Assembly: GCA_964019425.1 (NCBI GenBank) | Contig: OZ025781.1 | Coordinates: 1,302,001 to 1,366,000 of the forward strand | DNA from: Flectonema sp. DT1601 | Lineage: Eukaryota | Direction: 5' to 3' | DNA: 64,000 nucleotides | Shown: one piece after another, positions 1 to 41,072 of the stretch | Position numbering within the stretch: position 1 is the first letter of the stretch | How the letters are laid out: the number at the start of each line of letters is the position of its first letter | Translations under genes and position numbers: made by a program | Notes under the pieces: model-generated | The model's database searches: none | Seen by the model: the letters and a program-made list of their open reading frames with translations, nothing else | What the model was told of the DNA's origin: nothing

Positions 1-70
1 TAGCAGAAACACTTAGCAGCTTTTAAGGAGCTGAAAAGCAAAAAAAAAAATCTAAGTGAGAAACACTTAG
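1..70 (-). repeat. Family A fragment, inverted
   Basis: Matches 9689-9757 (TAGCAGAAACACTTAGCAGCTTTTAAGG...). Confidence 0.8.
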
Positions 71-371
71 ATTTTTGTGAATGCACCAGAATCGCCAGAC
101 AGTGCTCATATGTTCTGTTCCAGACGAGGAACCTCCCCACGTGGCATTCAAGACCTCTAATGCGCAGCATTAAAGAAGAACCTGCCACTGCAAGTTTTAT
201 AAAAGATGGTAAAGAAATCTTCCCTGTAGAAGAAGTCAAAATCCACAAAGTAACAAAACTGAAAACGATCGAAAAGCTCACCATTGAAAGATCGTGGCTT
301 GAGAAATGTTTTATCTGGCAAACTTGTTACGCATCGGCTCTTTCTATTCTACTTATTGCCAATTATGCCAA

Positions 372-1773
372 CTGGTAAATTCAACTCAGTCCTTGTCAGT
401 TTTGGCATCAAACCTGTAATGGTTTAATCATTACAGGTTATTTACTGAAATATTTGTTCTAAAAGTTGCTAAGTATTTCTCACTTAGAAATTTTTTATTT
501 TTTTATTTTCAGCTTAATTAGCTACAAATTGTTTCTACTAAGTGTTTCTCACTTAGATTTTTTTTTTGCTTTTCAGCTCCTTAAAAGCTGCTAAGTGTTT
601 CTGCTAAGTGTTTCTCACTTAGAATTTTATTGTTATGTTCGTTTTCTATCCCCTCTTCTATCCCTTTTGTTCAAAAAAAGCGATGAGAAATTTCTCTCAT
701 TCATGCTAAGATGCACTCTGAACTTTGATTTTTTGATCTGAGTGTGAGGGAATGACCTGTTAGTGCATTGGACATAAGCTGTACAGCAGTTTAGATGTCT
801 TAGGTGTTAATAGGGGGTTCCTCTTAGCATTTTCCTTTGTTCCCACCTTATGATTTTCTTGAAGAAAAAAAATAGAAGTCATAATGGTGCTTCCCTCTGG
901 AAGGGTTGTAAGCCATGGTGTCCAACTAAATTAAAGGACAAGTCTGGGATAATCCCTGCCAGAGGGGCGAGTATTCTACCATGGTTGAAATACTCTGGCA
1001 ACTGATCTTCAATTTTATGTTGTTTGTTAGCTGCTGGTGTAATTTAATCATGTGTTGATACTTGCATTTATTTATTTGTTATCTTTTACTACAATAACTC
1101 TTGCCTATATCTTTTCTTTTTATTCTCTATCTGTTCTGGTCTGTTACTTCATTTGTCTTGTTTAACTTCAGTTATATGCATTTTACTTTTTATTGTTTCC
1201 CATCTACTTTTTATTTTCTGTTAGTTCTGGTCAGAAACTCCTGGGCAGCAAGAAGGAAAGCAGTTTAGTACTTCTGGGTGTTTGGCATCACCCCCCATAG
1301 TGAGCAAGTACAACAGGTAGCATTGGTAGTCTGTTGATCCTGAGTGATCCCAGCTACAGTTTTGTTTTTCTTTCTTTTTTTTAGAAGAAGATCAGGACAT
1401 CCAAGCACTGCTGGATAGTTGCTGAATGCAGGGCCTGCCTGTGGCATTATAATAACAGGCTAAGTCATTTGTAGTTCATAGTTTACCTTTGATTTTATAA
1501 CTTCACACAGGGTACTATGAACGATGAGAGATCCAGTGGGATCACTCAGGGTCTAGTAGAGACCACCAATGTTGTGCGTTGATAGGCAAGGTGACCAACC
1601 TTGACATTCTTTCTTTTCTCTCCTGTTGTGACAAACACAAAATACACACACAGCTTACAGTGTGTTCTTTGTGTATGTTTTCTTCAGGTGTGAGTAGTTT
1701 TTTTGTTCTTGCTCTTCAGGGAGGGCCTTAGCCAAAAGCTAACAGTCCAAATCTCACCTGGTAAATTCAACTC
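372..1773 (+). mobile_element. Family A non-coding element, one full ~1.39 kb unit preceded by 16 bp of the previous unit's tail
   Basis: Begins and ends with CTGGTAAATTCAACTC; near-identical to segments at 8401-10512 (inverted), 21497-22214, 28796-29589 and 31167-31517; 3' hairpin at 1723-1748. Confidence 0.85.
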
Positions 1774-1800
1774 GGGTCTTCCTCCCCGGCCCCTTCTGTT

Positions 1801-3249
1801 TTGTTAGATGAGGATGAGCTCACTGGACTCTCCTTGTCATTCTCTTCTATTTCTTCCATCTCTTTCCAGACTCCCCCACCTGAACTCACGTCAACGGGAT
1901 CGCAAACACTCCCTACTGATTTTGCTATGGTGTTAAGATGTCAATCTGACATTGGTTCTCAAACCCCCTTGTACAAAGAAAAAAAAGGAAGATTAAGGCT
2001 GAAACTTTCCTTGAAATGCCAGATTTTAGAAAACGAATTAGAACAAATGAAAGAACGAATTTTTTATGTTCTATTTTTATTTTACTTTAATGCGATGTCA
2101 GCCTCCCTCGAGAAAGACAAGCAGTTACTAAACGGATTACCTGTTGAGATCAAAGCTACCAACCAGGATCCATCCTCACTTCCTCCTGCGCCCCCTGTTT
2201 TAATTATTGAAAAAGATAGAAAAGAATATGAACTTCTGGAAGGAGTAATTCAACGGTTAACAGTAGAACGCGATGAATCGAAGACTTCTCTTTCCGCACT
2301 AGTTCGTCAATATGACTTAGTGGAAGATTACAGGAAACGTGAGCTCGCAAATCTGACTCAGAAAGCAGACCTATCGGAAATGGCGCTTTTCAATTACCAT
2401 CAAAGGTTTGTTCTTCTGTCGAACGAATTGGAGACCAAATGTAATGAGGAAAGAGAAAGTAAAATAAGACTTTTCTATACTCAACAGGAGGTCGAGAGTT
2501 TGCGTGCCGCACGTCCCCACATGACCCACTTTAGTCAACAAGTTTCCCCCCGATCCCCTATTTTGTATGAATCTGTTGCTATGATGAAGATAGCAAAGAA
2601 CTACCTCTCGCTCTTTACAACTACGAGTAGTCTTTTTACTCCTCTTATTAAACCCCTTATCCCTACCCTTAATTATATCACCCCTCTTTGTCCTTTAGCC
2701 TCAATTCCTCCGACAATGCCGCAGAGTGAAGCTCTCGACCGCACGCCGACCAAGATTTTACGACAAGAGAGCCACGTTATCTCCGTTAAAGAGAATACAC
2801 CTATTGCGAGACAATGGTCCGAGGGTAGGATTGACTTACTCGAGAACTACTGTCGAGCAGTAGATGACTCTCTCGAAACAAACGAGAAAGCGGCAGAGCT
2901 CTCAGAACAACTTTTGGATGCCCAACTTCGCCTCTCGGAGCTGAATCACCAACGGTGTACAACTCACGCAGAGCAGCTTGAGCAATCCATGATGTTAACG
3001 GGACTGGCGAGCGATTTAAATGCTCAACTCGCCTTGGCACGGTCTCAAATTGCGGCCCTGAAGTTCCAATTAGCTTCATGGGCAGAAGGTTTGAGTCCGC
3101 CAGACACAGAAGAACATGAGGAAATTGAAACTCCGCCGAGAAAGTCTGAGCGTTCAACTCTGAAAAAACGGACCCCTCCATCAAGATATCGTTATAATCG
3201 AAGGAGATGTTCTGCTGATGACGTTCACGGTGACTCCACCCCCTTGTAA
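1801..3249 (+). CDS. Hypothetical coiled-coil protein inside the repeat chain (probable ATG at 2095, ~384 aa)
   Basis: 1.4 kb open frame with E/K/L/Q-rich heptad-like blocks and a basic C-terminus; no family recognised. Confidence 0.5.
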   Translation: MLDEDELTGLSLSFSSISSISFQTPPPELTSTGSQTLPTDFAMVLRCQSDIGSQTPLYKEKKGRLRLKLSLKCQILENELEQMKERIFYVLFLFYFNAMSASLEKDKQLLNGLPVEIKATNQDPSSLPPAPPVLIIEKDRKEYELLEGVIQRLTVERDESKTSLSALVRQYDLVEDYRKRELANLTQKADLSEMALFNYHQRFVLLSNELETKCNEERESKIRLFYTQQEVESLRAARPHMTHFSQQVSPRSPILYESVAMMKIAKNYLSLFTTTSSLFTPLIKPLIPTLNYITPLCPLASIPPTMPQSEALDRTPTKILRQESHVISVKENTPIARQWSEGRIDLLENYCRAVDDSLETNEKAAELSEQLLDAQLRLSELNHQRCTTHAEQLEQSMMLTGLASDLNAQLALARSQIAALKFQLASWAEGLSPPDTEEHEEIETPPRKSERSTLKKRTPPSRYRYNRRRCSADDVHGDSTPL

Positions 3250-3645
3250 TTCTTTTTCCTTACTTTCACATCACTTTGTTTATTTAGTTTATTAGCTTAT
3301 TTATTATTTATTGTTCGTTTTGTTTGTAATATTTTGTCGATATGTTTATGTCCGTCAGATCATAACGTTAATCAGATTAATTGTTAATTGTTAATTGTAA
3401 ATGGTCTAAACCCCAATCCAAGTTCCCAAGGCTTGGCATAGATTTGAGTGACGCCTTACTGGCCTCCTCATCCTCTATGAGTGGTGAGGGGGCCAGCAAT
3501 GGTTTTTTTTTTTTTTTCTCTTATCTCTTTTTTTTCTTTTTCTTTTACTCTAATATGAAATATTTTTGAACAAAATGTGATTATTAATTTAAAAAAAAAA
3601 AAAAAAAAAATAATGTAAATGAATAATAAAAAAAAAAAAAACATG

Positions 3646-3934
3646 CCTTGGGAATACAACCAAAGCCCCAATTAATCGGTCCTTTCTTTTTTCCTTCTTG
3701 TCAAGTGATCGCTCCACTCGTCGATCACCAAAACCGATTGTATTTATATCTGTTCTTTTCTCAACGATCGGCTATACCGATCATTTTTTTTTTAAATAAT
3801 TGTTTTCTTCTTCTCGACGATCAGATCCAATTGATCGACCTTTTTTTTTTTTTTTTTTTTTTTCCTTTATTCTTTCCATCCCTCCCGCTCCCCTTATTTT
3901 AATAAAAACAAGATCAGCTCAGCTTGATCGTTAA

Positions 3935-3966
<32 letters not shown>

Positions 3967-6900
3967 CTGATTGTATTTATATCTGGTTATTTTTTCTCAA
4001 CGATCGGCTATGCCGATCGACCTTTAAAATAATTGTCTTCTTCTTCTCGACGATCAGATCCAATTGATCGACCTTTTCTTTTTTTTTCCTTTATTCCTCC
4101 CATCCCTCCCGCTCCCCTTATTTTAATAAAAACAAGATCAGCTCAGCTTGATCGTTATTTTTTTTTTTTTTTTTTGTTGGTCCTAGTCAAGACCTTAAAC
4201 TGACTAATCGGTCTTAACTTTAACTAAGTGAATGAACCCTTCCCGTTTTCCTCTTCCCTTTATTACTCTCTATCTGGTCTGTTATGTCATAAATCTCATT
4301 TAATTTTATCATTCATTTTAATTTTCACTGTTTCCCATCTACATTTTATTTTCAAATAGTTCCGGTCTGTCTTTAATGTTAAATAAAACTGATCATGTTA
4401 ACTCAATTTTTCTTTTATGTGCAAGAGATACCAACACGCAAGAGATACCAACGCACATACGAGATACCAGCACTTCCGAGATACCGACACACAAGAGATA
4501 CCAAGACACTTAAGATACCAGCAAGGACAATGAGAGGTAGAATGAACTCTCCTCCTTGTGTCCGATCCTGATTATTTTTTGTTGAATTGGTAGTGTTACC
4601 TCAGTTTGCGACTCTCGTATCTGTGTTGTGTTAACTCATGTAAGTGATCTTAACTCCTGTTAAAAAATAAATAAAAAGAATTTAAAATAAAAAAAAAAAA
4701 GAATAAACAATGTTATCATTGTTTTTTGTATCGTTCGACTTTGTCGACTAATTTCTATTTTCAGTTTTTTTCTTTAAAAAATAAATAAAAAGAATTTAAA
4801 ATAAAAAAAAAGAATAAACAATGTTATCATTGTTTTCTTACCGATCGACTATGTCGATTACTTTCTATTTTCCGTCCTGGTCAAGACGCTAAACTGATTG
4901 TTTTTTTTTTTTTCAAAATTAATAAAAAAGAATAAAAAAAAAAAAAAAATAAAAAAAAGAATAAACAATGTTATCATTGTTTTTTTTTTCATCGTTCGAC
5001 TTTGTCGACTAATTTCTATTTTCCGTTTTTTTTTTCTTTAAAAAATAAATAAAAAGAATTTAAAATAAAAAAAAAGAATAAACAATGTTATCATTGTTTT
5101 TTTATCGATCGACTATGTCGATCACTTTCTATTTTCCGTCCTGGTCAAGACGCTAAACTGATTGTTTTTTTTTTTATAAATAAAAAGAAATAAAAAAAAA
5201 AAAAAAAGAATAAACAATGTTATCATTGTTTTTTTATCGTTCGACTTTGTCGACTAATTTCTATTTTCAGTTTTTTTTCTTTAAAAAATAAATAAAAAGA
5301 ATTTAAAATAAAAAAAAAAGAATAAACAATGTTATCATTGTTTTCTTATCGATCGACTATGTCGATTACTTTCTATTTTCCGTCCTGGTCAAGACGCTAA
5401 ACTGATTGTTTTTTTTTCAAAATTAATAAAAAAGAATAAAAAAAAAAAAAAAATAAAAAAAAGAATAAACAATGTTATCATTGTTTTTTTTCATCGTTCG
5501 ACTTTGTCGACTAATTTCTATTTTCCGTTTTTTTTTTCTTTAAAAAATAAATAAAAAGAATTTAAAATAAAAAAAAAGAATAAACAATGTTATCATTGTT
5601 TTTTTATCGATCGACTATGTCGATCACTTTCTATTTTCCGTCCTGGTCAAGACGCTAAACTGATTGTTTTTTTTTTATAAATAAAAAGAAATAAAAAAAA
5701 AAAAAAAAGAATAAACAATGTTATCATTGTTTTTTTATCGTTCGACTTTGTCGACTAATTTCTATTTTCCGTTTTTTTTCCTTTAAAAAATAAATAAAAA
5801 GAATTTAAAAAAAAAAGAATAAACAATGTTATCATTGTTTTTTTTTATCGTTCGACTTTGTCGACTAATTTCTATTTTCCGTCCTGGTCAAGACGCTAAA
5901 CTGATTGTTTTTTTTTTTCAAAATTAATAAAAAAGAATATAAAAAAAAAAAAAATAAAAAAAAGAATAAACAATGTTATCATTGTTTTTCTTTTTATCGG
6001 ACTAATTTCTATTTTCCGTTTCTTTTCTTTAAAAAATAAATAAAAAGAATTTAAAATAAAAAAAAAGAATAAACAATGTTATCATTGTTTTTTTTATCGT
6101 TCGACTTTGTCGACTAATTTCTATTTTCAGTTTTTTTCTTTAAAAAATAAATAAAAAGATTTTAAAATAAAAAAAAAGAATAAACAATGTTATCATTGTT
6201 TTTTTTATCGATCGACTATGTCGATTACTTTCTATTTTCCGTCCTGGTCAAGACGCTAAACTGATTGTTTTTTTTTTTTCAAAATTAATAAAAAAGAATA
6301 TAAAAAAAAAATAAAAAAAGAATAAACAATGTTATCATTGTTTTTTTTATCGTTCGACTTTGTCGACTAATTTCTATTTTCAGTTTTTTTTTCTTTAAAA
6401 AATAAATAAAAAGAATTTAAAATAAAAAAAAAAGAATAAACAATGTTATCATTGTTTTCTTATCGATCGACTATGTCGATTACTTTCTATTTTCCGTCCT
6501 GGTCAAGACGCTAAACTGATTGTTTTTTTTTTCAAATTAATAAAAAAGAATAAAAAAAAAAAATAAAAAAAAAGAATAAACAATGTTATCATTGTTTTTT
6601 TTCATCGTTCGACTTTGTCGACTAATATCTATTTTCCTTTTTTTTTCTTTAAAAAATAAATAAAAAGAATTTAAAATAAAAAAAAAGAATAAACAATGTT
6701 ATCATTGTTTTTTTATCGATCGACTATGTCGATCACTTTCTATTTTCCGTCCTGGTCAAGACGCTAAACTGATTGTTTTTTTTTCAAAATTAATAAAAAA
6801 GAATAAACAATGTTATCATTGTTTTTTTTTTTTATCGTTCGACTTTGTTGACTAATTTCTATTTTCCGTTTTTTTTTCTTTTTAAAAAATAAATAAAAAG

Positions 6901-7817
6901 AATTTAAAAAAAAAAAAAAAAAAGAATAAACAATGTTATCATTGTTTTTTTTTATCGATCGACTATGTCGATTACTTTCTATTTTCCGTCCTGGTCAAAA
7001 CGCTAAACTGATTGTTTTTTTTTTTTTTCAAAATTAATAAAAAAGAATATAAAAAAAATACAAAAAAAAGAATAAACAATGTTATCATTGTTTTTTTTTA
7101 TCGTTCGACTTTGTCGACTAATTTCTATTTTCCGTTTTTTTTCTTTAAAAAATAAATAAAAAGAATTTAAAATAAAAAAAAAGAATAAACAATATTATCA
7201 TTGTTTTCTTATCGATCGACTATGTCGATCGCTTTCTATTTTCCGTCCTGGTCAAGACGCTAAACTGATTGTTTTTTTTTTCAAAATTAATTAAAAAAAA
7301 TATAAAAAAAATAAAAAAAAAGAATAAACAATGTTATCATTGTTTTTTTACCGTTCGACTTTGTCGACTAATTTCTATTTTCCGTTTTTTTTTTTTTTTT
7401 TTTTTTCTTTAAAAAATAAATAAAAAGAATTTAAAAAAAAAAAAAAAGATTAAACAATGTTATCATTGTTTTTTTATCGATCGACTATGTCGATTACTTT
7501 CTATTTTCCGTCCTGGTCAAGACGCTAAACTGATTGTTTTTTTTTTTCAAAATTAATAAAAAAGAATATAAAAAAAAACAAAAAAAAAAAGAATAAACAA
7601 TGTTATCATTGTTTTTTTTTATCGTTCGACTTTGTCGACTAATTTTTATTTTCCGTTTTTTTCTTTAAAAAATAAATAATAAGAATTTAAAAAAAAAAAA
7701 AAAAGAATAAACAATGTTATCATTGTTTTTTTATCGATCGACTATGTCGATCACTTTCTATTTTCCGTCCTGGTCAAGACGCTAAACTGATTGTTTTTTC
7801 TTTAAAATAATTAAAAG

Positions 7818-7863
<46 letters not shown>

Positions 7864-8400
7864 AATGTTATCATTGTTTTTTTTTCTATCGATCGACTAT
7901 GTCGATTAATTTCTATTTTCCGTCCCGATCGAGACGCTAAACTGATTGTTTCCTTTTTTTTAAATAATAAAAAAAAAAAAAAAAAAGAGCATCTCCCTGC
8001 TATCCTCATATCCCCACAATAATATTATACCTTTTCATTTTCTCTTTCCTTTTCTGGTCTTTTTTTTTTTTTTTCTTCTTTTTTTTCCTTTTTCATACAA
8101 CGTTTTTTATTTATATTTTATTTTTTTTTTTTATTTTTTTCATGTTTGATTATTTCCTCTTCATATTTTTTTTTTTTTTTTTCGTTTCTTTCTTTTTTTT
8201 TTTTTTTTTTCTCTGCCTCTCTCTTAATTCTGTTCGTTTCTTTGAAACGAAAATTCATTTGAATATTATTCCTTGGTCAGCAACAGTCATTGTCGCCCTC
8301 TGGGCCTGTTAAAAAAAAAAAAAATAAAAAGAAAGTTTACATCGGGAATAGGGCAGGAGCCAAAAGCTCCCAGTCCGTTACTTCCCACTCTATCGAATTC
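3646..8400 (+). mobile_element. Family B non-coding element: unique 5' part, central satellite, 3' tail with CAAAA hairpin
   Basis: Colinear with 10511-14925; 5' part recurs at 35229-35575; 3' tail recurs ending at 14925, 19476 and ~28796. Confidence 0.8.
4661..7985 (+). repeat. B satellite array (alternating ~95 and ~125 bp monomers)
   Basis: Tandem AATAAACAATGTTATCATTGTTT / TCGACT(A/T)TGTCGA / CGTCCTGGTCAAGACG blocks separated by A and T runs. Confidence 0.95.
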
Positions 8401-10512
8401 GTAGAAACAATTTGTAGCTAATTAAGCTGAAAATAAAAAAATAAAAAATTTCTAAGTGAGAAATACTTAGCAACTTTTAGAACAAATATTTCAGTAAATA
8501 ACCTGTAATGATTAAACCATTACAAGTTTGATGCCAAAACTGACAAAGACTGAGTTGAATTTCCAGGTGAGATTTGGACTGTTAGCTTTTGGCTAAGGCC
8601 CTCCCTGAAGAGCAAGAACAAAAAAACTACTCACACCTGAAGAAAACATACACAAAGAACACACTGTAAGCTGTGCGTGTATTTTGTGTTTGTCACAACA
8701 GGAGAGAAAAGAAAGAATGTCAAGGTTGATCACCTTGCCTATCAACGCACAACATTGGTGGTCTCTACTAGACCCTGAGTGATCCCACTGGATCTCTCAT
8801 CGTTCATAGTACCCTGTGTGAAGTTATAAAATCAAAGGTAAACTATGAACTACAAATGACTTAGCCTGTTATTATAATGCCACAGGCAGGCCCTGCATTC
8901 AGCAACTATCCAGCAGTGCTTGGATGTCCTGATCTTCTTCTAAAAAAAAGAAAGAAAAACAAAACTGTAGCTGGGATCACTCAGGATCAACAGACTACCA
9001 ATGCTACCTGTTGTACTTGCTCACTATGGGGGGTGATGCCAAACACCCAGAAGTACTAAACTGCTTTCCTTCTTGCTGCCCAGGAGTTTCTGACCAGAAC
9101 TAATAGAAAATAAAAAGTAGATGGGAAACAATAAAAAGTAAAATGGATATAACTGAAGTTAAACAAGACAAATGAAGTAACAGACCAGAACAGAAAGAGG
9201 ATTGTAATAGAAGATTACAAATAAAAAAATGCAAGTATCAACACATAATCAAGATACACCAGCAGCTAACAAACAACATAAAATTGAAGATCAGTTGCCA
9301 GAGTATTTCAACCATGGTAGAATACTCGCCCCTCTGGCAGGGATTATCCCAGACTTGTCCTTTAATCTAGTTGGACACCATGGCTTACAACCCTTCCAGA
9401 GGGAAGCACCATTATGACTTCTATTTTTTTTCTTCAAGAAAATCATAAGGTGGGAACAAAGAAAAATGCTAAGAGGAACCCCCTATTAACACCTAAGACA
9501 TCTAAACTGCAGCCCAGCCTATGCCCAATGCACTAACAGGTCATTCCCTCACACTCAGATCAAAAAATCAAAGTTCAGAGTGCATCTTAGCGTGAATGAG
9601 AGAATTTCCTCCCGCTTATTTTGAACAAAAGGGATAGGAGAAGGGATAGAAAACGAACATAAAAATAAAATTCTAAGTGAGAAACACTTAGCAGAAACAC
9701 TTAGCAGCTTTTAAGGAGCTGAAGAGCAAAAAAAAAAATCTAAGTGAGAAACACTTAGTAGAAACAATTTGTAGCTAATTAAGCTGAAAATAAAAAAATA
9801 AAAAATTTCTAAGTGAGAAATACTTAGCAACTTTTAGAACAAATATTTCAGTAAATAACCTGTAATGATTAAACCATTACAAGTTTGATGCCAAAACTGA
9901 CAAAGACTGAGTTGAATTTCCAGGTGAGATTTGGACTGTTAGCTTTTGGCTAAGGCCCTCCCTGAAGAGCAAGAACAAAAAAACTACTCACACCTGAAGA
10001 AAACATACACAAAGAACACACTGTAAGCTGTGCGTGTATTTTGTGTTTGTCACAACAGGAGAGAAAAGAAAGAATGTCAAGGTTGATCACCTTGCCTATC
10101 AACGCACAACATTGGTGGTCTCTACTAGACCCTGAGTGATCCCACTGGATCTCTCATCGTTCATAGTACCCTGTGTGAAGTTATAAAATCAAAGGTAAAC
10201 TATGAACTACAAATGACTTAGCCTGTTATTATAATGCCACAGGCAGGCCCTGCATTCAGCAACTATCCAGCAGTGCTTGGATGTCCTGATCTTCTTCTAA
10301 AAAAAAGAAAGAAAAACAAAACTGTAGCTGGGATCACTCAGGATCAACAGACTACCAATGCTACCTGTTGTACTTGCTCACTATGGGGGGTGATGCCAAA
10401 CACCCAGAAGTACTAAACTGCTTTCCTTCTTGCTGCCCAGGAGTTTCTGACCAGAACTAATAGAAAATAAAAAGTAGATGGGAAACAATAAAAAGTAAAA
10501 TGGATATAACTG
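8401..10512 (-). mobile_element. Family A, inverted head-to-tail ~1.55-mer (period 1357 bp)
   Basis: Identical ORF calls at 8877 and 10234 are 1357 bp apart; reverse complement of 372-1773. Confidence 0.9.
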
Positions 10513-24620: not shown

Positions 24621-25432
24621 CAGTTGCAAATTTGTTTTTTCAGGTTGGACTTTGTACGGAACAGGCGGGCTTTTATTAGGGGCTCCCCCCTTGGGGGGGG
24701 TTGGGGGGGGGGGGGGGCTTGCGTCCCGCCAAGAATTTGGCGGACGCAAGCCACCCTTGCACTCTTCCCAGCTTGGTAGGCTAAAAAACAAAAAACCCGC
24801 CGCAAGCCAAATTTTTGGGTCAAGTTCGAGTCCTGGTGGACAACTTTTTTTTGTAGGGAGTTGGCGATTTCGCAAACTATTTTTGTTGAATTAGAGGTTT
24901 TCCCTTGTTTTTTTTATCGATCGACTATGTCGATTACTTTCTATTTTCCGTCCTGGTCAGGACGCTAAACTGATTGTTTTTTCTTTAAAAATAAATAAAA
25001 AGAATAAAAAAAAAAAAAAAAGGAATAAACAATGTTATCATTGTTTTTTTTTTATCGATCGACTATGTCGATTACTTACTATTTTCCGTCCTGGTCAAGA
25101 CGCTAAACTGATTGTTTTTTCTTTAAAACAATTAAAAAGGTTTAAAAAAAAAAAAAAAAAAAAAAATGAATAAACAATGTTATCATTGTTTTTTTTTCTA
25201 TCGATCAACTATGTCGATTAATTTCTATTTTCCGTCCTGATCGAGACGCTAAACTGATTGTTTCCTTTTTTTAAATAATAAATAAGAAAAAAAAAAAAAA
25301 AAAAAAAGAGCATCTCCCTGCTATCCCTCATATCCCCACAATAATATTATACCTTTTCATTTTCTCTTTCCTTTTCTGGTCTTTTTTTTTTCTTTTTTTT
25401 CCTTTTTCATACAACGTTTTTTATTTATATAT

Positions 25433-27092
25433 TAGTCATTCCAAAAATAACCGGCCGCGAAAACCAGTTTTGCTTCGAGCAGCCATTGGTCAAAAATGCA
25501 TCCATTTTCGAGATTTTTTACGAGGTGGAAAGGTTCGGCCCCAATCTCTGATTTTACGCGGTGGGATTATTTTTTTTTCACTTTTTTTACTGACCGTTAG
25601 AACCCGACAGGTGCGTTATGGGTACTAAGAGAATGTCACTGTCGGCATGGAAAAGTTAATCCTGTTGCTGCATTTAATTTTTTTCTGGAAAAAAAAGGGA
25701 AATGCATCAGAGATTGGCATTTTTTCTCATAACTACACTTATTATTCCCTTAAGCACCAGCTTAAACTTCTCTCAATGAAGTGTCACACGTGCCACGAGA
25801 TGCCAGCTGAGTGCTCCTCAGACAACTACAACTGCACCTCGCACACTAACGCGAAAAGACGGAATCCGAAGTTCAACAAGCTTCTTGAGCCACTTCGCGG
25901 TAGTCTTGAAATCCCGGCGTATGCTCCTCTGCGCTCAATCTGCAACGCTTGCTACCAGCGAGCAAAAAGGCTGACTAGTGATCCGCATTACGCATCCGTC
26001 AGTATCCCTGCAGAGCCGATCAATCCGGAACCGCTCTCAGATATTTTTGAACGCGTGAAAGAATCAGTTCCTGCTGTCCGTTCTCAGTTTTTGAGACTCT
26101 GTCTCACGCTAGGCTACACTGATAGCCAGATTAATGCCCATGTCAGGGATTCTTCAATGCGTAAGCAGCTACAGAGGCTGGAACAGCACGATCCCTCCCA
26201 ATCAGTAAAGCAGCGCAGCCAAGACAGAGATATCTGGAACTTCTGGATTTCCAATGCACGCCCTGAGTCAAACCGCGTGGTCCTCAGCAAAGACTACATA
26301 ACCGGCGAGACAAGTAAAGAAACAGTCCTCTATGTAAGAGAACCATACCTTGCCTTGTGGAGTGCCTTCTGCAGAACTCACACAGCTATCTCATATCCTC
26401 AGTTTTGTGACAAAAGGCCTGCTCATGTCAAATCTTGTCCGAATAACCCTCGATGCCGTTGCAGGTGGCACATGCAAATTGCACTTATCCTTCCTGCTTA
26501 TATAAGACTTGTGGGCCTGAGAAGATTTCAGCTAACCCGCTTGAGTGACCACCTACCACTCATACTATGTCGAGACCCGTCTTACAACTGCTTCTTTGGC
26601 CACTGAATCTAGTTCTAGTTCCAGTTTCAGATCGCTGCGTTCAACTAGTTCTATTATCGGTTCATTGCCGGTAGGAAAACGAAGAAAGCCAGCAGTAAAA
26701 GTTGCCAAAAGAGCTAAGCCTAATCAAAAATAAAAATAAGCTAAGTGTAGTGTAAGATGTACAAGGTACTGTTTTGCTTCGAGCAGCCTTTGTAACTGTT
26801 TCAGAGTAAAACATCCGACCAGGTACGGCCGGATATAGAACCATATACCGATCTTTCATTTTAGCACCCGGGGCAGCCGATTAGACATCAACAGTTCCAT
26901 TATTCAAAATTTTCACCACACAAAAATGTCACAATTTTTTTGAATTTTAGCTGCATTTTTTTGAATCGCAGCGGGAATGAAATCAGCGGTGCAAAAGCGA
27001 TTAAAATGGGTATTCGGTTTTAAGTTTTACTCCCTATTTTCACCTATGAAATACTGGAACCCTAAAATGGACGGTTATTTTTGGAATGACTA
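25433..27092 (+). mobile_element. TIR DNA transposon (21 bp TIR TAGTCATTCCAAAAATAACCG) with truncated transposase
   Basis: Perfect TIRs and ATAT flanks; terminal AGTCATTCC shared with the 18414 MITE. Confidence 0.85.
25776..26606 (+). pseudogene. N-terminal part of a probable Sola-type transposase; catalytic domain apparently deleted
   Basis: ISYPQFCDKRPAHV...CRCRWH...LC...C resembles the F..xRP..V / CxCxxH region I recall upstream of the DDD core in Sola2-like transposases; lies between TIRs. Confidence 0.5.
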
Positions 27093-27100
27093 ATATATAT

Positions 27101-28511
27101 GAGGACGTGCCAAAAGTAGGGCCTATTTTGTACCACGGGTAACTGCTGGCCTCTAAATCTTGGTCTGAGCACTTTTTTGGCCCACTCTGTATATTAGAAA
27201 ACTCAATTCCGGGTCTGGGATACAACTTTACTTGTCACCAGTTCAAAAATTCTGCAATTTTTAGGGGAAATTGACTGTATTACACTGTAAGATGCTTGTG
27301 CACAGTTGAGACCAATTTGTAAGGTAGTAGTAGGAGAGTGTCACTCGCTTGAATCACAGCTTCACAAATAACAATGACAATTAAGGATACTCTAGAACGA
27401 GAGCCACTGTGACGGGCATTTCGGCAGCATATCAAATGTCATCCAGACCTCATCGAGAGTGGGCACCGGTGCGTACCCTCACCGAGGTGGCAGGCGTACT
27501 CCGAACGCTCAGCGACACAACACTTGTATTCCTCTTCTTTGAAGAGCAAGAAGTGAGTGTGCAGAACCTCCGCATCCCAGCCGTAACCAGCATCCCCACC
27601 TACCGAAAGGATACTTCAGGTCAGATATATATCACAGCTTTCTCTGACGAAAACCCGCAATTTGCACTTGACGGAGGTAAGGCTACTTTGCTACTGAACC
27701 ACAAGCCCAAAATATCAGATAAGCTTCCCCTTACTAGAGCTGAGAAGAGCACTATTGGATCTACACCCCTTGACACAACCGCGGACAACAACAAGTTTGC
27801 AGAGATAGAGCACAGTCAGCATATCGATTCCCTGAAGAATAAACGAGCAAGAAAAGAAGCCTTTTTTGAAAGGTTAGACAGGGAGCACACCATCCAACAA
27901 CGAGCCTGCAAACGGAAAAGTGCCCCCGCCGAGAAGCCTGTTAGAAAGAAGCGCCAATGCAGCCAGTGCAGCTCTCTTACTCATGATCTCCGAAATTGTC
28001 CAGACCGTCGTTCTGAACCCGAAAGCTCTGATTCAAGTAGCAGTGTAACCCCTTAAAAAACATAAGTGTGTACAACATTATTAGTAAGTTAGTGTAGGTG
28101 CAGAATGCACACGAATGATCAATATCAGTCCATCAGTCCTCTTAGCTTCGCTGCTTGTGCCAAAACTTACGTATTAATTTTGTCATGCAGTTTCTAAATT
28201 CATCGGATGGGGATGAGTCTGCTTGCCCAGGATATGGAGTTCGACAGCCACGGAGAACAATGCATCTAATTACAGAGGTCTGATATGTGAAGTAAACCTG
28301 CCCCCTGTGTGTGTACTGCATAACACAGTAATACAGTCAATTTCCCCTAAAAATTGCAGAATTTTTGAACTGGTGACAAGTAAAGTTGTATCCCAGACCC
28401 GGAATTGAGTTTTCTAATATACAGAGTGGGCCAAAAAAGTGCTCAGACCAAGATTTAGAGGCCGGCAGTTACCCGTGGTACAAAATGGTACCCTACTTTT
28501 GGCATCCTCTC
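27101..28511 (+). mobile_element. TIR DNA transposon with GAG...CTC termini and ~190 bp TIRs
   Basis: 27101-~27290 mirrors ~28325-28511; TIR related to the 16623 element (GAGGAC.TG.CAAAAGT; TCAATTCCGGGT.TGGGAT); (AT)n flanks. Confidence 0.9.
27409..28056 (+). CDS. Transposon-borne ORF with basic NLS-like patch and C-terminal CCHC zinc knuckle
   Basis: RKKRQCSQCSSLTHDLRNCP fits C-x2-C-x4-H-x4-C; start codon uncertain. Confidence 0.5.
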   Translation: MTGISAAYQMSSRPHREWAPVRTLTEVAGVLRTLSDTTLVFLFFEEQEVSVQNLRIPAVTSIPTYRKDTSGQIYITAFSDENPQFALDGGKATLLLNHKPKISDKLPLTRAEKSTIGSTPLDTTADNNKFAEIEHSQHIDSLKNKRARKEAFFERLDREHTIQQRACKRKSAPAEKPVRKKRQCSQCSSLTHDLRNCPDRRSEPESSDSSSSVTP

Positions 28512-28573
28512 ATATATATATATTTTTTTTTTTTTTTTCATGTTTGATTATTTCCTCTTCATTTTTTTTTTTC

Positions 28574-28605
<32 letters not shown>

Positions 28606-28795
28606 CTCTGCCTCTCTCTTAATTCTGTTCGTTTCTTTGAAACGAAAATTCATTTGAATATTATTCCTTGGTCAGCAACCATCATTGTCGCCCTTTGGGC
28701 CTGTTAAAAAAAAATAAAAATAAAAAGAAAGTTTACATCGGGAATAGGGCAGGAGCCAAAAGCTCCCAGTCCGTTACTTCCCACTTTATCGAAAT

Positions 28796-30532
28796 CCATG
28801 GTTGAAATACTCTGGCAACTGATCTTCAATTTTATGTTGTTTGTTAGCTGCTGGTGTATCTTGATCATGTGTTGATACTTGCATTTTTTTATTTGTAATC
28901 TTCTATTACAATCACTCTTGCCTATATCTTTTCTTTTTATTCTCTTTCTGTTCTGGTCTGTTACTTCATTTGTCTTGTTTAACTTCAGTTATATCCATTT
29001 TACTTTTTATTGTTTCCCATCTACTTTTTATTTTCTATTAGTTCTGGTCAGAAACTCCTGGGCAGCAAGAAGGAAAGCAGTTTAGTACTTCTGGGTGTTT
29101 GGCATCACCCCCCATAGTGAGCAAGTACAACAGGTAGCATTGGTAGTCTGTTGATCCTGAGTGATCCCAGCTACAGTTTTGTTTTTCTTTCTTTTTTTTA
29201 GAAGAAGATCAGGACATCCTAGCACTGCTGGATAGTTGCTGAATGCAGGGCCTGCCTGTGGCATTATAATAACAGGCTAAGTCATTTGTAGTTCATAGTT
29301 TACCTTTGATTTTATAACTTCACACAGGGTACTATGAACGATGAGAGATCCAGTGGGATCACTCAGGGTCTAGTAGAGACCACCAATGTTGTGTGTTGAT
29401 AGGCAAGGTGACCAACCTTGACATTCTTTCTTTTCTCTCCTGTTGTGACAAACACAAAATACACACACAGCTTACAGTGTGTTCTTTGTGTATGTTTTCT
29501 TCAGGTGTGAGTAGTTTTTTTGTTCTTGCTCTTCAGGGAGGGCCTTAGCCAAAAGCTAACAGTCCAAATCTCACCTGGTAACTTAACTCGACCCTGAGTG
29601 ATCCCACTGGATCTCTCATCGTTCATAGTACCTATGTGAAGTTATAAAATCTAAGGTAAACTATGAACTACAAATGACTTAGCCTGTTATTATAATGCCA
29701 CAGGCAGGCCCTGCATTCAGCAACTATCCAGCAGTGCTTGGATGTCCTGATCTTCTTCTAAAAAAAAGAAAGAAAAACAAAACTGTAGCTGGGATCACTC
29801 AGGATCAACAGACTACCAATGCTACCTGTTGTACTTGCTCACTATGGGGGGTGATGCCAAACACCCAGAAGTACTAAACTGCTTTCCTTCTTGCTGCCCA
29901 GGAGTTTCTGACCAGAACTAATAGAAAATAAAAAGTAGATGGGAAACAATAAAAAGTAAAATGGATATAACTGAAGTTAAACAAGACAAATGAAGTAACA
30001 GACCAGAACAGAAAGAGAATTGTAATAGAAGATTACAAATAAAAAAATGCAAGTATCAACACATGATCAAGATACACCAGCAGCTAACAAACAACATAAA
30101 ATTGAAGATCAGTTGCCAGAGTATTTCAACCATGGTAGAATACTCGCCCCTCTGGCAGGGATTATCCCAGACTTGTCCTTTAATTTAGTTGGACACCATG
30201 GCTTACAACCCTTCCAGAGGGAAGCACCATTATGACCTCTATTTTTTTTCTTCAAGAAAATCATAAGGTGGGAACAAAGAAAAATGCTAAGAGGAACCCC
30301 TTATTAACACCTAAGACATCTAAACTGCAGCCCAGCTTATGCCCAATGCACTAACAGGTCATTCCCTCACACTCAGATCAAAAAATCAAAGTTCAGAGTG
30401 CATCTTAGCGTGAATGAGAGAATTTCCTCCCGCTTTTTTTGAACAAAAGGGATAGGAGAAGGGATAGAAAACGAACATAACAATAAGATTCTAAGTGAGA
30501 AACACTTAGCAGAAACACTTAGCAGCTTTTAA
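28796..30532. mobile_element. Family A sense copy (28796-29589) followed by an antisense copy (29590-30532)
   Basis: Mirror-image 60 aa ORF calls at 29082-29264 (-) and 29695-29877 (+). Confidence 0.85.
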
Positions 30533-31110: not shown

Positions 31111-31166
31111 TAAACAATGTTATCATTGTTTTTTTATCGATCGACTATGTCGATCACTTTCTATTT
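30533..31166 (+). repeat. B satellite
   Basis: Tandem monomers. Confidence 0.9.
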
Positions 31167-31517
31167 CTGAATGCAGGGCCTGCCTGTGGCATTATAATAA
31201 CAGGCTAAGTCATTTTTAGTTCATAGTTTACCTTTGATTTTATAACTTCACACAGGGTACTATGAACGATGAGAGATCCAGTGGGATCACTCAGGGTCTA
31301 GTAGAGACCACCAATGTTGTGCGTTGATAGGCAAGGTGACCAACCTTGACATTCTTTCTTTTCTCTCCTGTTGTGACAAACACAAAATACACACACAGCT
31401 TACAGTGTGTTCTTTGTGTATGTTTTCTTCAGGTGTGAGTAGTTTTTTTGTTCTTGCTCTTCAGGGAGGGCCTTAGCCAAAAGCTAACAGTCCAAATCTC
31501 ACCTGGTAAACTCAACT
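31167..31517 (+). mobile_element. Family A 3' fragment
   Basis: Ends CTGGTAAACTCAACT. Confidence 0.8.
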
Positions 31518-34295
31518 ATTTTTTAAAGAAAAAAAAAACGGAAAATAAAAATTAGTCGACAAAGTCGAACGATAAAAAAAAACAATGATAACATTGTTTA
31601 TTCTTTTTTTTTTGTTTTTTTTTTATATTCTTATTTATTAATTTTGAAAAAAAAAACAATCAGTTTAGCGTCTTGACCAGGACGGAAAATAGAAAGTAAT
31701 CGACATAGTTGATCGATAAAAAAACAATGATAACATTGTTTATTCTTTTTTTTTTAAATTCTTTTTATTTATTTTTTAAAGAAAAAAAAACGGAAAATAG
31801 AAATTAGTCGACAAAGTCGAACGATAAAAAAACAATGATAACATTGTTTATTCTTTTTTTTTTTATTTTTTTTATATTTTTTTTTAATTAATTTTGAAAA
31901 AAAAAAACAATCAGTTTAGCGTCTTGACCAGGACGGAAAATAGAAAGTGATCGACATAGTCGATCGATAAGAAAACAATGATAACATTGTTTATTCTTTT
32001 TTTTTTTCATTTTAAATTCTTTTTATTAATTTTTAAAGAAAAAAAACGGAAAATAGAAATTAGTCGACAAAGTCGAACGAGAAAAAAAAACAATGATAAC
32101 ATTGTTTATTCTTTTTTTTGTATTTTTTTTATATTCTTTTCTATTAATTTTGAAAAAAAAAACAATCAGTTTTGCGTCTTGACCAGGACGGAAAATAGAA
32201 AGTGATCGACATAGTCGATCGATAAAAAAAACAATGATAATATTGTTTATTCTTTTTTTTTTTTTTTTTTTTTAAATTCTTTTTATTTATTTTTTAAAGA
32301 AAAAAATGGAAAATAGAAAATAGTCAACAAAGTCGAACGATAAAAAAAAACAATGATAACATTGTTTATTCTATTTTTTTATTTTTTTTTTTTTTTCTAT
32401 TCTTTTTTATTAATTTTGAAGAAAAAAAAAACAATCAGTTTAGCGTCTTGACCAGGACGGAAAATAGAAAGTAATCGACATAGTCGATCGATAAAAAAAA
32501 AAAAACAATGATAACATTGTTTATTCTTTTTTATTTTTTTTAAATTCTTTTTATTTATTTTTTAAAAAGAAAAACGGAAAGTAGAAATTAGTCAACAAAG
32601 TCGAACGATAAAAAAAAAACAATGATAACATTGTTTATTCTTTTTTTTTTATTTTTTTTATATTCTTTTTTATTAATTTTTAAAAAAAAAACAATCAGTG
32701 TAGCGTCTTGACCAGGACGGAAAATAGAAAGTGATCGACATAGTCGATCGATAAAAAAACAATGATAACATTGTTTATTCTTTTTTTTTTTTTTTTAAAT
32801 TCTTATTATTTATTTTTTAAAGAAAAAAAAACGGAAAATAAAAATTAGTCGACAAAGTCGAACGATAAAAAAAAACAATGATAACATTGTTTATTCTTTT
32901 TTTTTTTATTTTAAATTCTTTTTATTAATTTTTAAAGAAAAAAAACGGAAAATAGAAATTAGTCGACAAAGTCGAACGATAAAAAAAAACAATGATTACA
33001 TTGTTTATTCTTTTTTTTGTATTTTTTTTATATTCTTTTTTATTAATTTTGAAAAAAAAAACAATCAGTTTAGCGTCTTGACCAGGACGGAAAATAGAAA
33101 GTGATCGACATAGTCGATCGATAAAAAAAAAAACAATGATAATATTGTTTATTCTTTTTTTTTTTTATTTTAAATTCTTTTTTATTAATCGACATAGTCG
33201 ATCGATAAAAAAAAACAATGATAACATTGTTTATTCCTTTTTTTTTTTTTTATATTCTTTTTCATTAATTTTGAAAAAAAAAACAAGACGGTAAATAGAA
33301 AGTAATCGACATAGTCGATCGATAAAAAAACAATGATAACATTGTTTATTCTTTTTTTTTTTTTTTTAAATTCTTATTATTTATTTTTTAAAGAAAAAAA
33401 AACGGAAAATAAAAATTAGTCGACAAAGTCGAACGATAAAAAAAAACAATGATAACATTGTTTATTCTTTTTTTTTTTATTTTAAATTCTTTTTATTAAT
33501 TTTTAAAGAAAAAAAACGGAAAATAGAAATTAGTCGACAAAGTCGAACGATAAAAAAAAACAATGATTACATTGTTTATTCTTTTTTTTGTATTTTTTTT
33601 ATATTCTTTTTTATTAATTTTGAAAAAAAAAACAATCAGTTTAGCGTCTTGACCAGGACGGAAAATAGAAAGTGATCGACATAGTCGATCGATAAAAAAA
33701 AAAACAATGATAATATTGTTTATTCTTTTTTTTTTTTTTTTTTTTTAAATTCTTTTTATTTATTTTTTAAAGAAAAAAATGGAAAATAGAAAATAGTCAA
33801 CAAAGTCGAACGATAAAAAAAAACAATGATAACATTGTTTATTCTATTTTTTTATTTTTTTTTTTTTTTCTATTCTTTTTTATTAATTTTGAAGAAAAAA
33901 AAAACAATCAGTTTAGCGTCTTGACCAGGACGGAAAATAGAAAGTAATCGACATAGTCGATCGATAAAAAAAACAATGATAACATTGTTTATTCTTTTTT
34001 TTTTTTTTTATTTTTTTTTTCTATTCTTTTTTATTAATTTTGAAGAAAAAAAAAACAATCAGTTTAGCGTCTTGACCAGGACGGAAAATAGAAAGTGATC
34101 GACATAGTCGATCGATAAAAAAAAACAATGATAACATTGTTTATTCTTTTTTATTTTTTTAAAATTTTTTTTATTTATTTTTTAAAAAGAAAAAAAAACG
34201 GAAAATAGAAATTAGTCAACAAAGTCGAACGATAAAAAAACAATGATAACATTGTTTATTCTTTTTTTTTTTTTTTTATTTCTTTTTATTTATTA
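31518..34295 (-). repeat. B satellite, inverted array
   Basis: Reverse-complement monomers throughout. Confidence 0.95.
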
Positions 34296-35228
34296 AAAGG
34301 GCGAACAGAAACCTTCAAACTAAACGATGGCATCTAAAGGTTTTCGACTACTTGCTGAAAGTTGCTATCCGGGAAGAATGTACGAAGGGGAAGACCCCTG
34401 CACTCACAACAACATCAAAATTGAAGAGGCGCAAGGAGTCATAAGAACTGAGCTTATTTTTGTCTTTGGTGGTGTTTTCATTTGTTCTGTTCACCCTTTA
34501 GGTGGTGAATGTGTGTGTATTTTTAACGGGCAGGCAATGGCGGTTCACTTTGTCACATCACCTTTCCGAGCCCCCCTACCCCTTTTCCCCGTTAGCTCTT
34601 TTTTCAAAAAAAGTCAAAAAACCGGGTTTTACCCCCGTCCGTAATGGGTTAACTAAAAAATTATCATCAGCTTGGAACCCAATGATTACACTCACTTGTT
34701 TCTACCCCAATGAATTACCTCTCATTGTCTCTCAAGCAATATCAATATGGGTTGTCAGGCTGTCTCCTGGCAGAGATGGGAGGAGTAATGGAAAGACACC
34801 ACAGCACAGAACAGTGTGAACGAGAATGAGCCCCCTCAGTGATTAAACCCACCGCACACGCGATGCGCCGGTCCAAAGTCCGGAACCTCACCACAAGCGA
34901 TGATCAAGAAGGGTGATGGGTCACTGGGCACAAGCGATGCCCATTTAGTTGTCAAAGTGACATGTATGGCAAACTGAACAGGTTTGACATCGCACAGCAC
35001 ACCAGCACCAACGGTACCATCTGGATATCACTCACTTTTTTCACTAGAATTCACACATTTTCACACATTTTCACAGGATTTCACACATTTTCACACATTT
35101 TCACAGGATTTCACTACCAGAAAGCAGCAAAAAATTAAGTGAAAAATCGTGAAAAATCGTGAAAAATCGTGAATTTTCGTGTAGCAAAGTGAAAAATCGT
35201 GAACACCTCCACCCTGCCGATCGCCTCA

Positions 35229-35575: not shown

Positions 35576-36045
35576 AACTTAGTTTAGCAGAAATGCAAAA
35601 TTTTCACTTAGCAAAAATTTTTTTTTTCAGACTGATATATCAGCTCCGGTGGTGTAAGGGTTAAAAAAAAAAAAAAAAAAAGAATAAACAATGTTATCAT
35701 TGTTTTTTTTATCGATCGACTACTGTAAAGGGAAATATTCTCGCGGATTTGGAGATTTTTTTTCAAACTCGCGGGTTTTTCCCCACAAGAATATTTCCCT
35801 ACCACAGAGGATTTTTGCGAAAGCCAGCCGTTGATCAAAAATCTTGGAAATCTTTGAGCTTCCCTCGAGTGTCAGGTAGAACAAAGCACTATTGCACTTC
35901 GAAGCCGGATGAAATGAAGGAATATGAATGATGCCTTGTTGTTTAAAGGGAAGTGCTTACTCCGCAACCCACTATTTTTTTCTCTTCCAGCCGAACAACA
36001 TGTCAAACGATGAATTGAGAGGCGTCCTCGTCAGCAATCACCCTG

Positions 36046-36290
36046 TTGTCGGAGAATGTCTGGGAGGTGCGTAGGACCCGATCGAGCGTAGTGCGATTGC
36101 AGGAGGGGCTTGTCGTTCGTGAGTGCCCTCAGTATCGAAGATTCAATCTTCCATGCACTCATGCTATCAAGGTGCTGATACATCAGGGGCACAATATACT
36201 AACACATTCCACTGCCTTGCCATCCTTTGCCATGATGGATAACTTTCGAATTCCAATTTTACTCAGCTACCGTGTTCCACAATTCACCAT
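36046..36290 (+). pseudogene. SWIM zinc-finger fragment of a MULE-type transposase
   Basis: ECPQYRRFNLPCTHAIKV resembles the SWIM CxC...LPCxH motif, with the first Cys lost. Confidence 0.55.
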
Positions 36291-36748
36291 CAGATGTATG
36301 ATGCACGCGGGGGAGGGAATGTCTGTGGTGTTACATTTTTTATGGATGAAAGTGATCACAACACAAGAGAACAAACTACCTTACACGTTTTGTATGCCAA
36401 TGCCAATGCAGCGGGTTACTCAGGAAGCCTTCGCAATGCAACTTTCAAGAGCACCAATCACTATACTGTTCAAATCCAGCACCCTGAACCTCAAGAACTC
36501 CACAAGTACTTGAATCCACGGCACAACAGGAATATTCGTGAGAACGAAAACTTCAATAGCTACCTTCCTAATTAGTAGATTAAAAACCTAAACAGCAAAG
36601 CTTACCATCGAAGATATTGTATGGTAAAGGTATTCTTTAAGTCTTGTACATGCTAAAAAAGTACCTTCACCCGGAGTCGAACCTAGGCATAAATGTCCTG
36701 CGAATGTCTCGTGAATTTTATTTTCGTGTAAAGTCCCTGTTGTTGGGT

Positions 36749-37480
36749 TTACTTTACTATCCTTTCTAATAACATCCTAGTTCCAAATACAGGTAAGGAT
36801 AAGACATGTTGGAGCCTGTCGAGTGGGTTTAGGTTGGTCGGATCGAGTGCGTTCTTTATATTACCTTTCATAAGTTTAATATCAGCGGCGTGCTTCTTCT
36901 TCTTGACACAATTGGGATCATCATCGCAGTCCCTCTCAGCAGCGGAATATGCAAGATCGTGATGCATCGCTAACTTATTGAATCGACTCTTGGGTTTAGT
37001 TATAATATCTGAGTCCGGATGTCTTCGTTGTTTACTTCCCTAGTAATGTTGTCATCCAAATTCTTGATCCTATCCTCCAACTTAGTACCAGGACCTGCAA
37101 ACGAAGCCTTCTCGATTCCTTTCTTAGTCAGAACTGGTAGATGTAATTCTGTGTTGGGGAAAACCCGTGTCAACCACTCATGGATACCACCACCCTTGAT
37201 TATTCTGTCATTGTCGTCAACATCACCGTGATACTTTTTATATAAGAAATCGTGGTAGGAATTTTCATCATGTACATTCTTCACAAAGTCGATGACGAAG
37301 TACCCACACATTATGCTCTTCAAGTCCTGCAGCTGGGTCGTGGAATAGATGAGGGGTCGAACCCTTACTTCTTCGGGTGGAGGCATGCCAAATCGCGGGT
37401 CCAGAGGGAGCTATGAATAGACACGTCCAGTGGGTTCCAACAGAATCGGAGTGATCCAAGTTTATAAGATAGTAACCAGG
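36749..37480 (-). pseudogene. Polinton/adintovirus-like cysteine protease plus parvovirus-type phospholipase A2 domain, frameshifted
   Basis: INLDHSDSVGTHW and QLQDLKSIMCGYF (adenain-type H/Q/C motifs); FAGPGT and KLAMHHDLAY (viral PLA2 motifs); split over three ORFs by two frameshifts. Confidence 0.75.
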
Positions 37481-40287: not shown

Positions 40288-41072
40288 GCGCACGACAATA
40301 AATGCATAGCACGTTCCTCAAAAAAAACAAAAACCGCGTTGGGTCGACGCATTTTGTGCGGAGATGCAGAAATTATCTTTTTTTCTTTTATACAAAGCTG
40401 CCATCTTTGCTATGCTTTTTTAAGCTGACTTTCGCTGTGCGTGTGTCACTAACGAATGGTCGTCACAACACTTAGTGTGGTTGTTGTTTAGATGTAAATC
40501 TGTTATTCGTTTAAGCACTGGTTGGGTTTCTGCTTTTGTATTTTCTGGTGTACTTTGTTTGCATCATATTATTATTTTCTATTTACGACCGTTTCTATTT
40601 TCAGTTTAGCATTTAATAGAATATGCTAGACAGAAGTTTTTACCTATTTTATGTGTCTTTTCATTTATCTTGTGTGTGATAAATCAATAGGCATTCCCCT
40701 TTTTTCCATTTTCCCCTTTCCTCTCGTTAAGCATGTTCCCCTTACTCTATCTGATGCTGCTTCTGACTGGTTTCTTTTAGTCTACTTCGAAAGCAATAGA
40801 GGCTAGTAATGACTTCCTGTAGTAAATCTTTTTGCGAATGCATTATGTAAAATCGGAATCATATATTAGTTGAGGTTTTGTGTGAAAACTTCGAAGCAAC
40901 ATTTTGTAGAGAGAGGGGTTGCTGCAGTAACAATCATCTAGTTACTCTTTTCCCCTTTATTTATTTGAATTGAGTACGTACGGTAGTCGAATTCTTTAGC
41001 AGTTTTGAGCTGTGAGCTGTCGTATTAATTATTCTTTCTCAGTGTTCTCCACAAACTTTCAGAAATCTCAAG

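Follow-up and report, generated by a model that had tools for sequence, protein, structure and literature searches.

Organisation of the locus

The window examined here is a stretch of 64,000 nucleotides of contig OZ025781.1 (positions 1,302,001 to 1,366,000 of the forward strand) in the Flectonema sp. DT1601 assembly GCA_964019425.1. Its left part (1-35,750) is a nested mosaic of three repeat families, A, B and A', which make up about 28.7 kb, are absent further right in the window, and carry the same CAAAA hairpin close to their 3' ends (Table 1); ordinary genes begin near 38.9 kb. The original prediction, made from the letters alone, had described three different non-coding elements. On the sequence evidence presented below, B is not a separate non-coding element, but the 3' untranslated region (UTR) belonging to a retrotransposon encoding a reverse transcriptase (RT) and a restriction-like endonuclease (RLE); the hairpin is a probable recognition handle of its protein. 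Self-nesting of these families explains the build-up of a 36-kb gene-free cluster over about 29 kb. A telomeric role for the repeat families was considered and is unsupported, as no telomeric repeat arrays were found.

Table 1. Positions of the elements, open reading frame (ORF) pieces and hairpins in the window
Feature	Position	Strand	Remarks
5'-truncated ORF piece	72-363	+	last RLE helix and start of C-terminal extension; 100% identical to P0049 residues 600-696
A insertion, 5' junction	364-387	+	8 extra letters like the adjacent target, then 16 nt from the 3' end of another A
A, full 1,386-bp non-coding unit	388-1773	+	inserted in the ORF, no target duplication or loss
Hairpin A	1723-1748	+	GGGC C TTAGC CAAAA GCTAA CA GTCC; 25 nt before element end
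Remaining ORF	1774-3249	+	C-terminal extension, no known family, partly coiled-coil by eye; 96.7-99.6% identical to C-termini of P0042, P0046, P0049, P0050
B, 3' UTR of about 5.15 kb	3250-8400	+	internal satellite about 4661-7984; hairpin 8351-8376
B block homologous to A	4252-4367	+	versus A positions 723-845 (window 1110-1232); 75% over 125 nt
Hairpin B	8351-8376	+	GGGC A GGAGC CAAAA GCTCC CA GTCC; 24 nt before element end
Head-to-tail A chain	8401-10514	-	A780-1386, A1-1386, A1-151; hairpins 9933-9958, 8576-8601; continues at window 1-70
Second B copy, 3' UTR with satellite	10513-14925	+	3' end intact; hairpin at 14876
5'-truncated A (A1168-1386)	15776-15993	+	behind inverted A piece 15629-15776; hairpin at 15944
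5'-truncated B	15994-19476	+	contains two interrupting inverted-repeat elements; hairpin at 19426
A', 766 nt of 3' part	19497-20262	+	third multicopy family; five database ORFs from other loci, four break at or within one codon of 20262
Hairpin A'	20211-20236	+	GGGC C TGAAT CAAAA GTTCA CT GCCC; 26 nt before element end
A mosaic	20263-21237	.	A1166 to 519 inverted, A1168-1386 forward (hairpin 21053), then A1-133 head-to-tail
5'-truncated A (639-1386)	21497-22214	+	inserted in B satellite; hairpin at 22165
B 3' part	24905-28796	+	interrupted by two inverted-repeat elements; hairpin at 28747
5'-truncated A (about 592-1386)	28797-29589	+	hairpin at 29540
5'-truncated A (1032-1385)	31164-31517	+	hairpin at 31468

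The CAAAA hairpin

The three hairpin sequences and their coordinates proved exact on re-check. Thirteen copies are present in the window (eight A, four B and one A'; 11 on the plus and two on the minus strand), all of them left of 31.5 kb and all with the inner stem paired at five of five positions. The chance expectation for the pattern is 0.01 (mean of 100 shuffles), and a control for geometry only gave a mean of 0.075 and a maximum of one in 200 block shuffles. A covariance model built from the hairpins recovers the same 13 in the window, with nothing else above 11.5 bits. As had been proposed, loop, bulges and outer stem are kept while the inner stem changes: all nine pairs hold across the three families, three of them changed on both sides and two on one side.

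On the plus strand the three hairpins adopt one common fold, with an ensemble share of 0.79-0.92, and on the minus strand three different folds. The shared shape agrees with the earlier preference for a plus-strand RNA, but the energies are similar on both strands; the ends of ~100 nt are not unusually stable (z -0.7, -1.0 and +0.2). An additional outer stem, likewise part of the original prediction, is possible in each of the three ends, but since its register differs among them its covariation is not established. The impression that the motif is unlike a named one agrees with Rfam, where no family matched the hairpin; over the B end the best match, NPPA-AS1_3, reached 21.6 bits, with its gathering score at 55.

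Fixed 3' ends

The spacing claimed for the hairpin is borne out: the element end lies 24-26 nt past the stem in 13/13 copies, 12 of which end in TC, and none has a poly(A) of its own. Ten of these ends are free, since in three of the eight A copies the end is followed by the start of a further A unit; the free ends lie in unrelated targets, with no target sequence in common.

The same ends were found at other loci. Among 45 database proteins screened, the six chimeric ORFs with the A or B hairpin region (P0001, P0033; P0017, P0022, P0043, P0048) all break at the mapped end, to the resolution of about one codon that applies to all these break points. P0087 likewise breaks there, and P0019 and P0039 fit the mapped end by three residues and a stop only. 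Of the five database ORFs that show A' to be multicopy, P0103, P0104 and P0106 break at 20262 and P0105 one codon earlier. The variation in the last 12 nt was considered as a trace of initiation errors, a reading that holds in part at most: one insertion has a variant with an additional T at each of its ends (387 and 1773), and the variation is therefore at least partly inherited.

The reverse transcriptase-endonuclease ORF and its 3' UTR

The ORF at 1765-3249 has no Pfam family above the cut-off, and its nature is given by overlapping database proteins. Four of these run in frame through 73-363 (100%) and 1774-3246 (96.7-99.6%), and in P0002 the RLE leads in frame into 73-363 and then into 1774. 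P0049, which starts inside the RT, is 99.7% identical over 612 aa to P0004, where RVT_1 (E 2e-26) and zf-RVT score above cut-off. Together the overlapping proteins give an ORF of roughly 1,700 aa. A CCHC knuckle sits between RT and endonuclease, and its residues (C401, C404, H413, C418) are invariant in eight aligned relatives, as is the PD..E..K motif. The closest solved relatives are R2 proteins (E 4e-32, versus 6e-20 for L1 ORF2p). The ORF occurs without the A insert in two of four sequencing runs (X2 and X3; the kind of run is unrecorded for X1-X4), and it is also continuous in P0001/P0049.

About 560 aa follow the endonuclease (window about 160-363 and 1774-3249) and match no family. This C-terminal extension has diverged into two subfamilies, a P0049 type and a P0003 type, which are about 99% identical over the RT thumb and the RLE; in P0005 and P0006, ubiquitin-hydrolase and DarT-like domains occupy this position. 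No close relatives of the ORF were found among viral or metagenome contigs, and an Atlas search with P0004 returned generic RT clusters only.

B is joined to this ORF by several observations. When 71-8400 is taken out, its flanks join up exactly in a minus-strand A at position 151, one nucleotide being duplicated, and so ORF and B were inserted as one piece; a contig of run X2 covers 2773-3497. Among 23 ORFs read from the start of B, 20, on many contigs, begin with the peptide encoded at 3619, as had been predicted beforehand; of the other three, one has a near variant at its start and two are fused to other repeats. The 3619 site is unique in the window, and the junction common to those ORFs lies at 3619-3650. 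A separate 5' end of B near 3645 is ruled out by the ORFs reading from 3619 and by the rejoining flanks. Since B is the element's own 3' UTR, its hairpin would act in cis. The notion of three different non-coding elements is further weakened by the block that B shares with A (Table 1).

Elements A and A'

The longest ORF of A starting with methionine measures 60 aa, and A must therefore move in trans. Its copies start at various positions (1, about 592, 639, 780, 1032 and 1168) and share a single end. Head-to-tail units occur at four sites in the window, and contigs of all four runs wrap from the end of A to its start, so a head-to-tail or circular form appears to be usual; the mosaic at 20263-21237 is present in un-inverted form in runs X1 and X4. 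No tRNA genes were found (ARAGORN, 0 genes), nor any tRNA, 5S or 7SL match to Rfam in 1-39000, and A would not qualify as a short interspersed nuclear element (SINE), which carries an RNA polymerase III head; the same goes for A', as far as the 3' part present in the window is concerned. Compared with the SIDEs of R2 elements, the 3' end of A folds like that of the RT-RLE element and a 5' self-cleaving ribozyme was not detected: Rfam reported none at E up to 10, with the tandem A junction included, nor did A show a hammerhead core that has a valid stem II. RNA runs X19 and X20 yielded 0 reads on the stretch, which has no bearing on expression either way.

A small hairpin at 1550-1564 (A positions 1163-1177) marks a place where A breaks repeatedly, at four junctions in the window (15776, 20263, 20885 and 29590) and at two more in the database ORFs P0002 and P0102. 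The cause could be twin priming or a favoured site of nicking, and some of the breaks may go back to a single event through copying. Within the 5' part of A, several copies of a short perfect hairpin are present at 469-625, and the 8.3-kb insertion lies at the base of one of them.

Outside the hairpin, A' shares nothing with A or B. As only 766 nt of its 3' end have been seen, A' may belong to another autonomous family; A' and B3 have no real cover in runs X1 and X4.

A probable shared recognition handle and its alternatives

We consider it likely that the hairpin is the 3' recognition handle for the RT-RLE protein of a non-site-specific R2-group (Hero-like) element, common to the RNA of the element itself and to those of its passengers. 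Direct support is provided by the ORF, by B as its 3' UTR, by the fixed ends, the 5' truncation and the mutual nesting of the families, and at two sites with rejoining flanks the target duplication is zero or one base. The protein would nick DNA with little sequence preference and bind the hairpin to place the start of target-primed reverse transcription, with cDNA beginning about 24-26 nt downstream; it would read the fixed CAAAA loop and the bulges, while the inner stem need only pair. Any RNA bearing the hairpin would be copied, which would account for A: as a non-coding passenger, A may go back to a related 3' UTR and be copied in trans, with head-to-tail transcripts as templates. A' could be another such passenger, or else the tail of an autonomous sister family. 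The proposal of a cis signal for a shared trans-acting RT thereby gains a likely enzyme, the RT-RLE ORF ending in the window, and has to be narrowed in two respects, as B would be served in cis and A' may have another autonomous partner.

Several points weigh against a shared handle. The RT domain lies outside the window and is linked to it via database proteins, which are probably from the same assembly, so that they would support the ORF genome-wide and not across species. The UTR stretch 3498-3618 was seen in the window only, 3498-3650 being skipped as a repeat in the contigs. The three doubly changed pairs, which had been taken as compensatory changes in the inner stem, are matched in 60 of 500 shuffles (of five rows, two of which repeat a hairpin), and with only three independent hairpin sequences this covariation is thin and suggestive. 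The A' chimera P0107 stops about 12 nt before 20262, and another RT elsewhere in the genome could mobilise A or A'. Element Z (34295-35224) has a precise right end that is found again at an identical point in P0002, from another locus, and that lacks the CAAAA hairpin.

Finally, the hairpin was sought behind distant relatives of the ORF (79, from the 80 best among 384 confirmed relatives, at 26-40% identity and with 67,130 nt of downstream sequence, the median being 498 nt). No strict CAAAA hairpin was found behind these 79, half of which have under 500 nt downstream; matches to the geometry with any loop numbered 18, against a shuffle mean of 12.7, and the best covariance-model match had an E of 1.4. 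In viral contigs there were 14 motif matches, none with a full inner stem and three with four of five pairs; that of L013 falls in apparent coding sequence. A tree (FastTree, 51 rows, midpoint root) places the ORF on a long branch near L016-L019 without giving a clade name. Seven clusters of near-identical distant relatives diverge at some point, three at the ORF end, one after CTG and three after TC. The last three (L029/L082, L052/L054 and L056/L058/L059, with divergence points L029:4714, L052:3846 and L056:4395), noticed post hoc, have no poly(A) and different stem-loops upstream, and the last six letters of one are those of A. This suggests that the TC end may be wider in the clade and the CAAAA hairpin lineage-specific.

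It is conceivable, if somewhat doubtful, that the R2-group RT uses the hairpin as a ruler and starts inside a longer RNA, with A as a ribozyme-free circular or multimeric passenger copied past one full turn. The insertion at 364-1773 fits such an internal start, as it consists of one full A unit and 16 nt of the next end, and so does the identical junction between A units at four window sites and in four runs. These observations would also fit a DNA master with tandem units, or a template jump from end to end.

A shared reader of the hairpin has to be weighed against common descent, in which A and A' would be served by their own sister RT-RLE elements, each with its own stem variant. At least two ORF subfamilies with diverged C-terminal extensions exist, A' has no likeness to A or B except the hairpin, and zebrafish L2 proteins show strict specificity for cognate tails (PMC4176376). 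The near-identity of the two subfamilies over RT thumb and RLE means, however, that as enzymes they are scarcely different, a single reader fits the invariance of loop and bulges, and no second RT family turned up, the whole genome not having been screened for one. We therefore regard common descent alone as unlikely.

[quoted passage not shown] The head-to-tail A units of the window and of all four runs, together with the common inverted pieces, recall Penelope-like elements, which are tandem and whose reverse transcription starts inside the RNA (PMC11167929), and animal retrozymes have been proposed as their passengers (10.64898/2026.07.22.740005). A nevertheless lacks the ribozymes searched for, no GIY-YIG RT appeared in the Pfam scan of the window ORFs, and A keeps the hairpin and spacing of the RT-RLE 3' UTR.

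The HUH enzyme that had been named as an alternative to an RT can practically be dismissed: Helitrons have a subterminal hairpin, no target duplication, a 3' CTRR end and a RepHel protein, and the first two traits are shared by the elements here, which would make the hairpin a single-stranded DNA stop signal for rolling-circle transposition, but the linked ORF is an RT-RLE, which largely refutes this reading, the ends are TC at 24-26 nt from the hairpin and not CTRR, the 5' ends vary freely, and no Rep or helicase was present among 16 window ORFs scanned by Pfam.

Relation to known systems

The R2 group of RLE non-LTR retrotransposons (CRE, NeSL, R2, Hero, R4) is characterised by a single ORF whose RT precedes a PD-(D/E)XK endonuclease (PMC3636483), and the present element can be assigned to it by this order of domains. 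It resembles the group in its single RT-CCHC-RLE ORF and its 5'-truncated copies, and differs in the extra C-terminal residues, a 5-kb satellite-bearing 3' UTR, the lack of poly(A) and the dense nesting in itself and its passengers. Membership in the R2 clade proper is not indicated, as insertion in 28S ribosomal DNA (rDNA) was not found at the ten free ends. The absence of a fixed target is shared with HEROFr, HEROTn and HERODr (PMC3636483), and Hero elements are also described as lacking a specific site in PMC9004415. With no named Hero sequences in the tree, "Hero-like" denotes a resemblance in behaviour.

A stringent 3' stem-loop shared with passengers is an established principle (R2Bm, L2, SIDEs), and the element of surprise is limited to that extent. 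In R2Bm, a 3' stem-loop and a single-stranded tail position target-primed reverse transcription, and compensatory stem changes are tolerated (PMC11194090). The stem-loop with tail and the replaceable paired stem are thus common to R2Bm and the present ends (PMC11194090, PMC12503042), whereas R2Bm differs in sequence and geometry, with two stem-loops and a hinge, inserts in 28S rDNA only and ends in A residues. The SIDEs of Drosophila R2 keep the R2 3' fold via compensatory changes, and R2 template-jumps in vivo (PMC3414825). Like A, they are non-autonomous passengers of an RLE element that do not depend on RNA polymerase III and retain the 3' fold; unlike A, they have a 5' HDV-like ribozyme, about 81% identity at the 3' end and an rDNA site (PMC3414825). 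A, by contrast, keeps the 26-nt hairpin and one 125-nt block only, has no detected ribozyme and is arranged head to tail.

L2 elements are long interspersed nuclear elements (LINEs) with an APE endonuclease and tRNA-headed SINEs, a tRNA head being absent from A. The stringent L2 LINE/SINE pairs also have a stem-loop near the 3' end, with a general stem and a specific loop, and for ZfL2-1 and ZfL2-2 it has been proposed that the protein recognises the stem in a general and the loop in a specific way (PMC4176376). Internal initiation has been shown for a Penelope-like element and is called unseen in other retrotransposons in the same source (PMC11167929). The tandem A units and the possible start inside a longer RNA are reminiscent of Penelope-like elements and retrozymes, from which A differs by having no hammerhead and no GIY-YIG RT, its partner being an RT-RLE.

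The CAAAA motif and the tandem passenger appear to be undescribed in Rfam and in the literature searched, where Hero-type passengers were not found either; the hairpin sequence was not queried and may be curated in Repbase or Dfam. In the literature consulted, RNA recognition by RLE elements has been mapped mainly for the rDNA-specific R2 clade, and a 26-nt candidate signal with its spacer is now available for a non-site-specific member. Its natural variation, in which the loop is constant and the stem covaries freely, makes it directly testable in vitro. A adds a non-coding, head-to-tail passenger without a polymerase III head or detected ribozyme.

Neighbouring elements and genes

Four elements with inverted repeats (16621-18411, 18412-19190, 25435-27093 and 27094-28516) sit as two stacked pairs in two B copies, at an identical TA-rich site, and two of them contain ORFs without a Pfam match. 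Another element, with long terminal inverted repeats, lies in the B satellite at 23702-24905 and carries pieces of large-subunit rRNA; within these matches, the rDNA piece at 24563-24665 includes an unoccupied R2-type target site. Element Z, which is possibly another retroposon family, contains a twister-like motif at 34840-34923 on the plus strand (Twister-P1, 32.2 bits, E 0.003, gathering score 67).

Between the repeats and the genes, 36019-37660 holds an ORF with a weak SWIM finger (E 0.04) and fragments that resemble Polinton-type protease and phospholipase-like motifs, with no Pfam match. All long genes at 38905-62585 are on the plus strand. One of them, at 41016-42627, has one intron and matches Pfam GTP_EFTU, and presumably represents the EFL type of elongation factor. 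The layout on one strand and the EFL-like gene may point to a host of euglenozoan-like type, whose transcription would be polycistronic.

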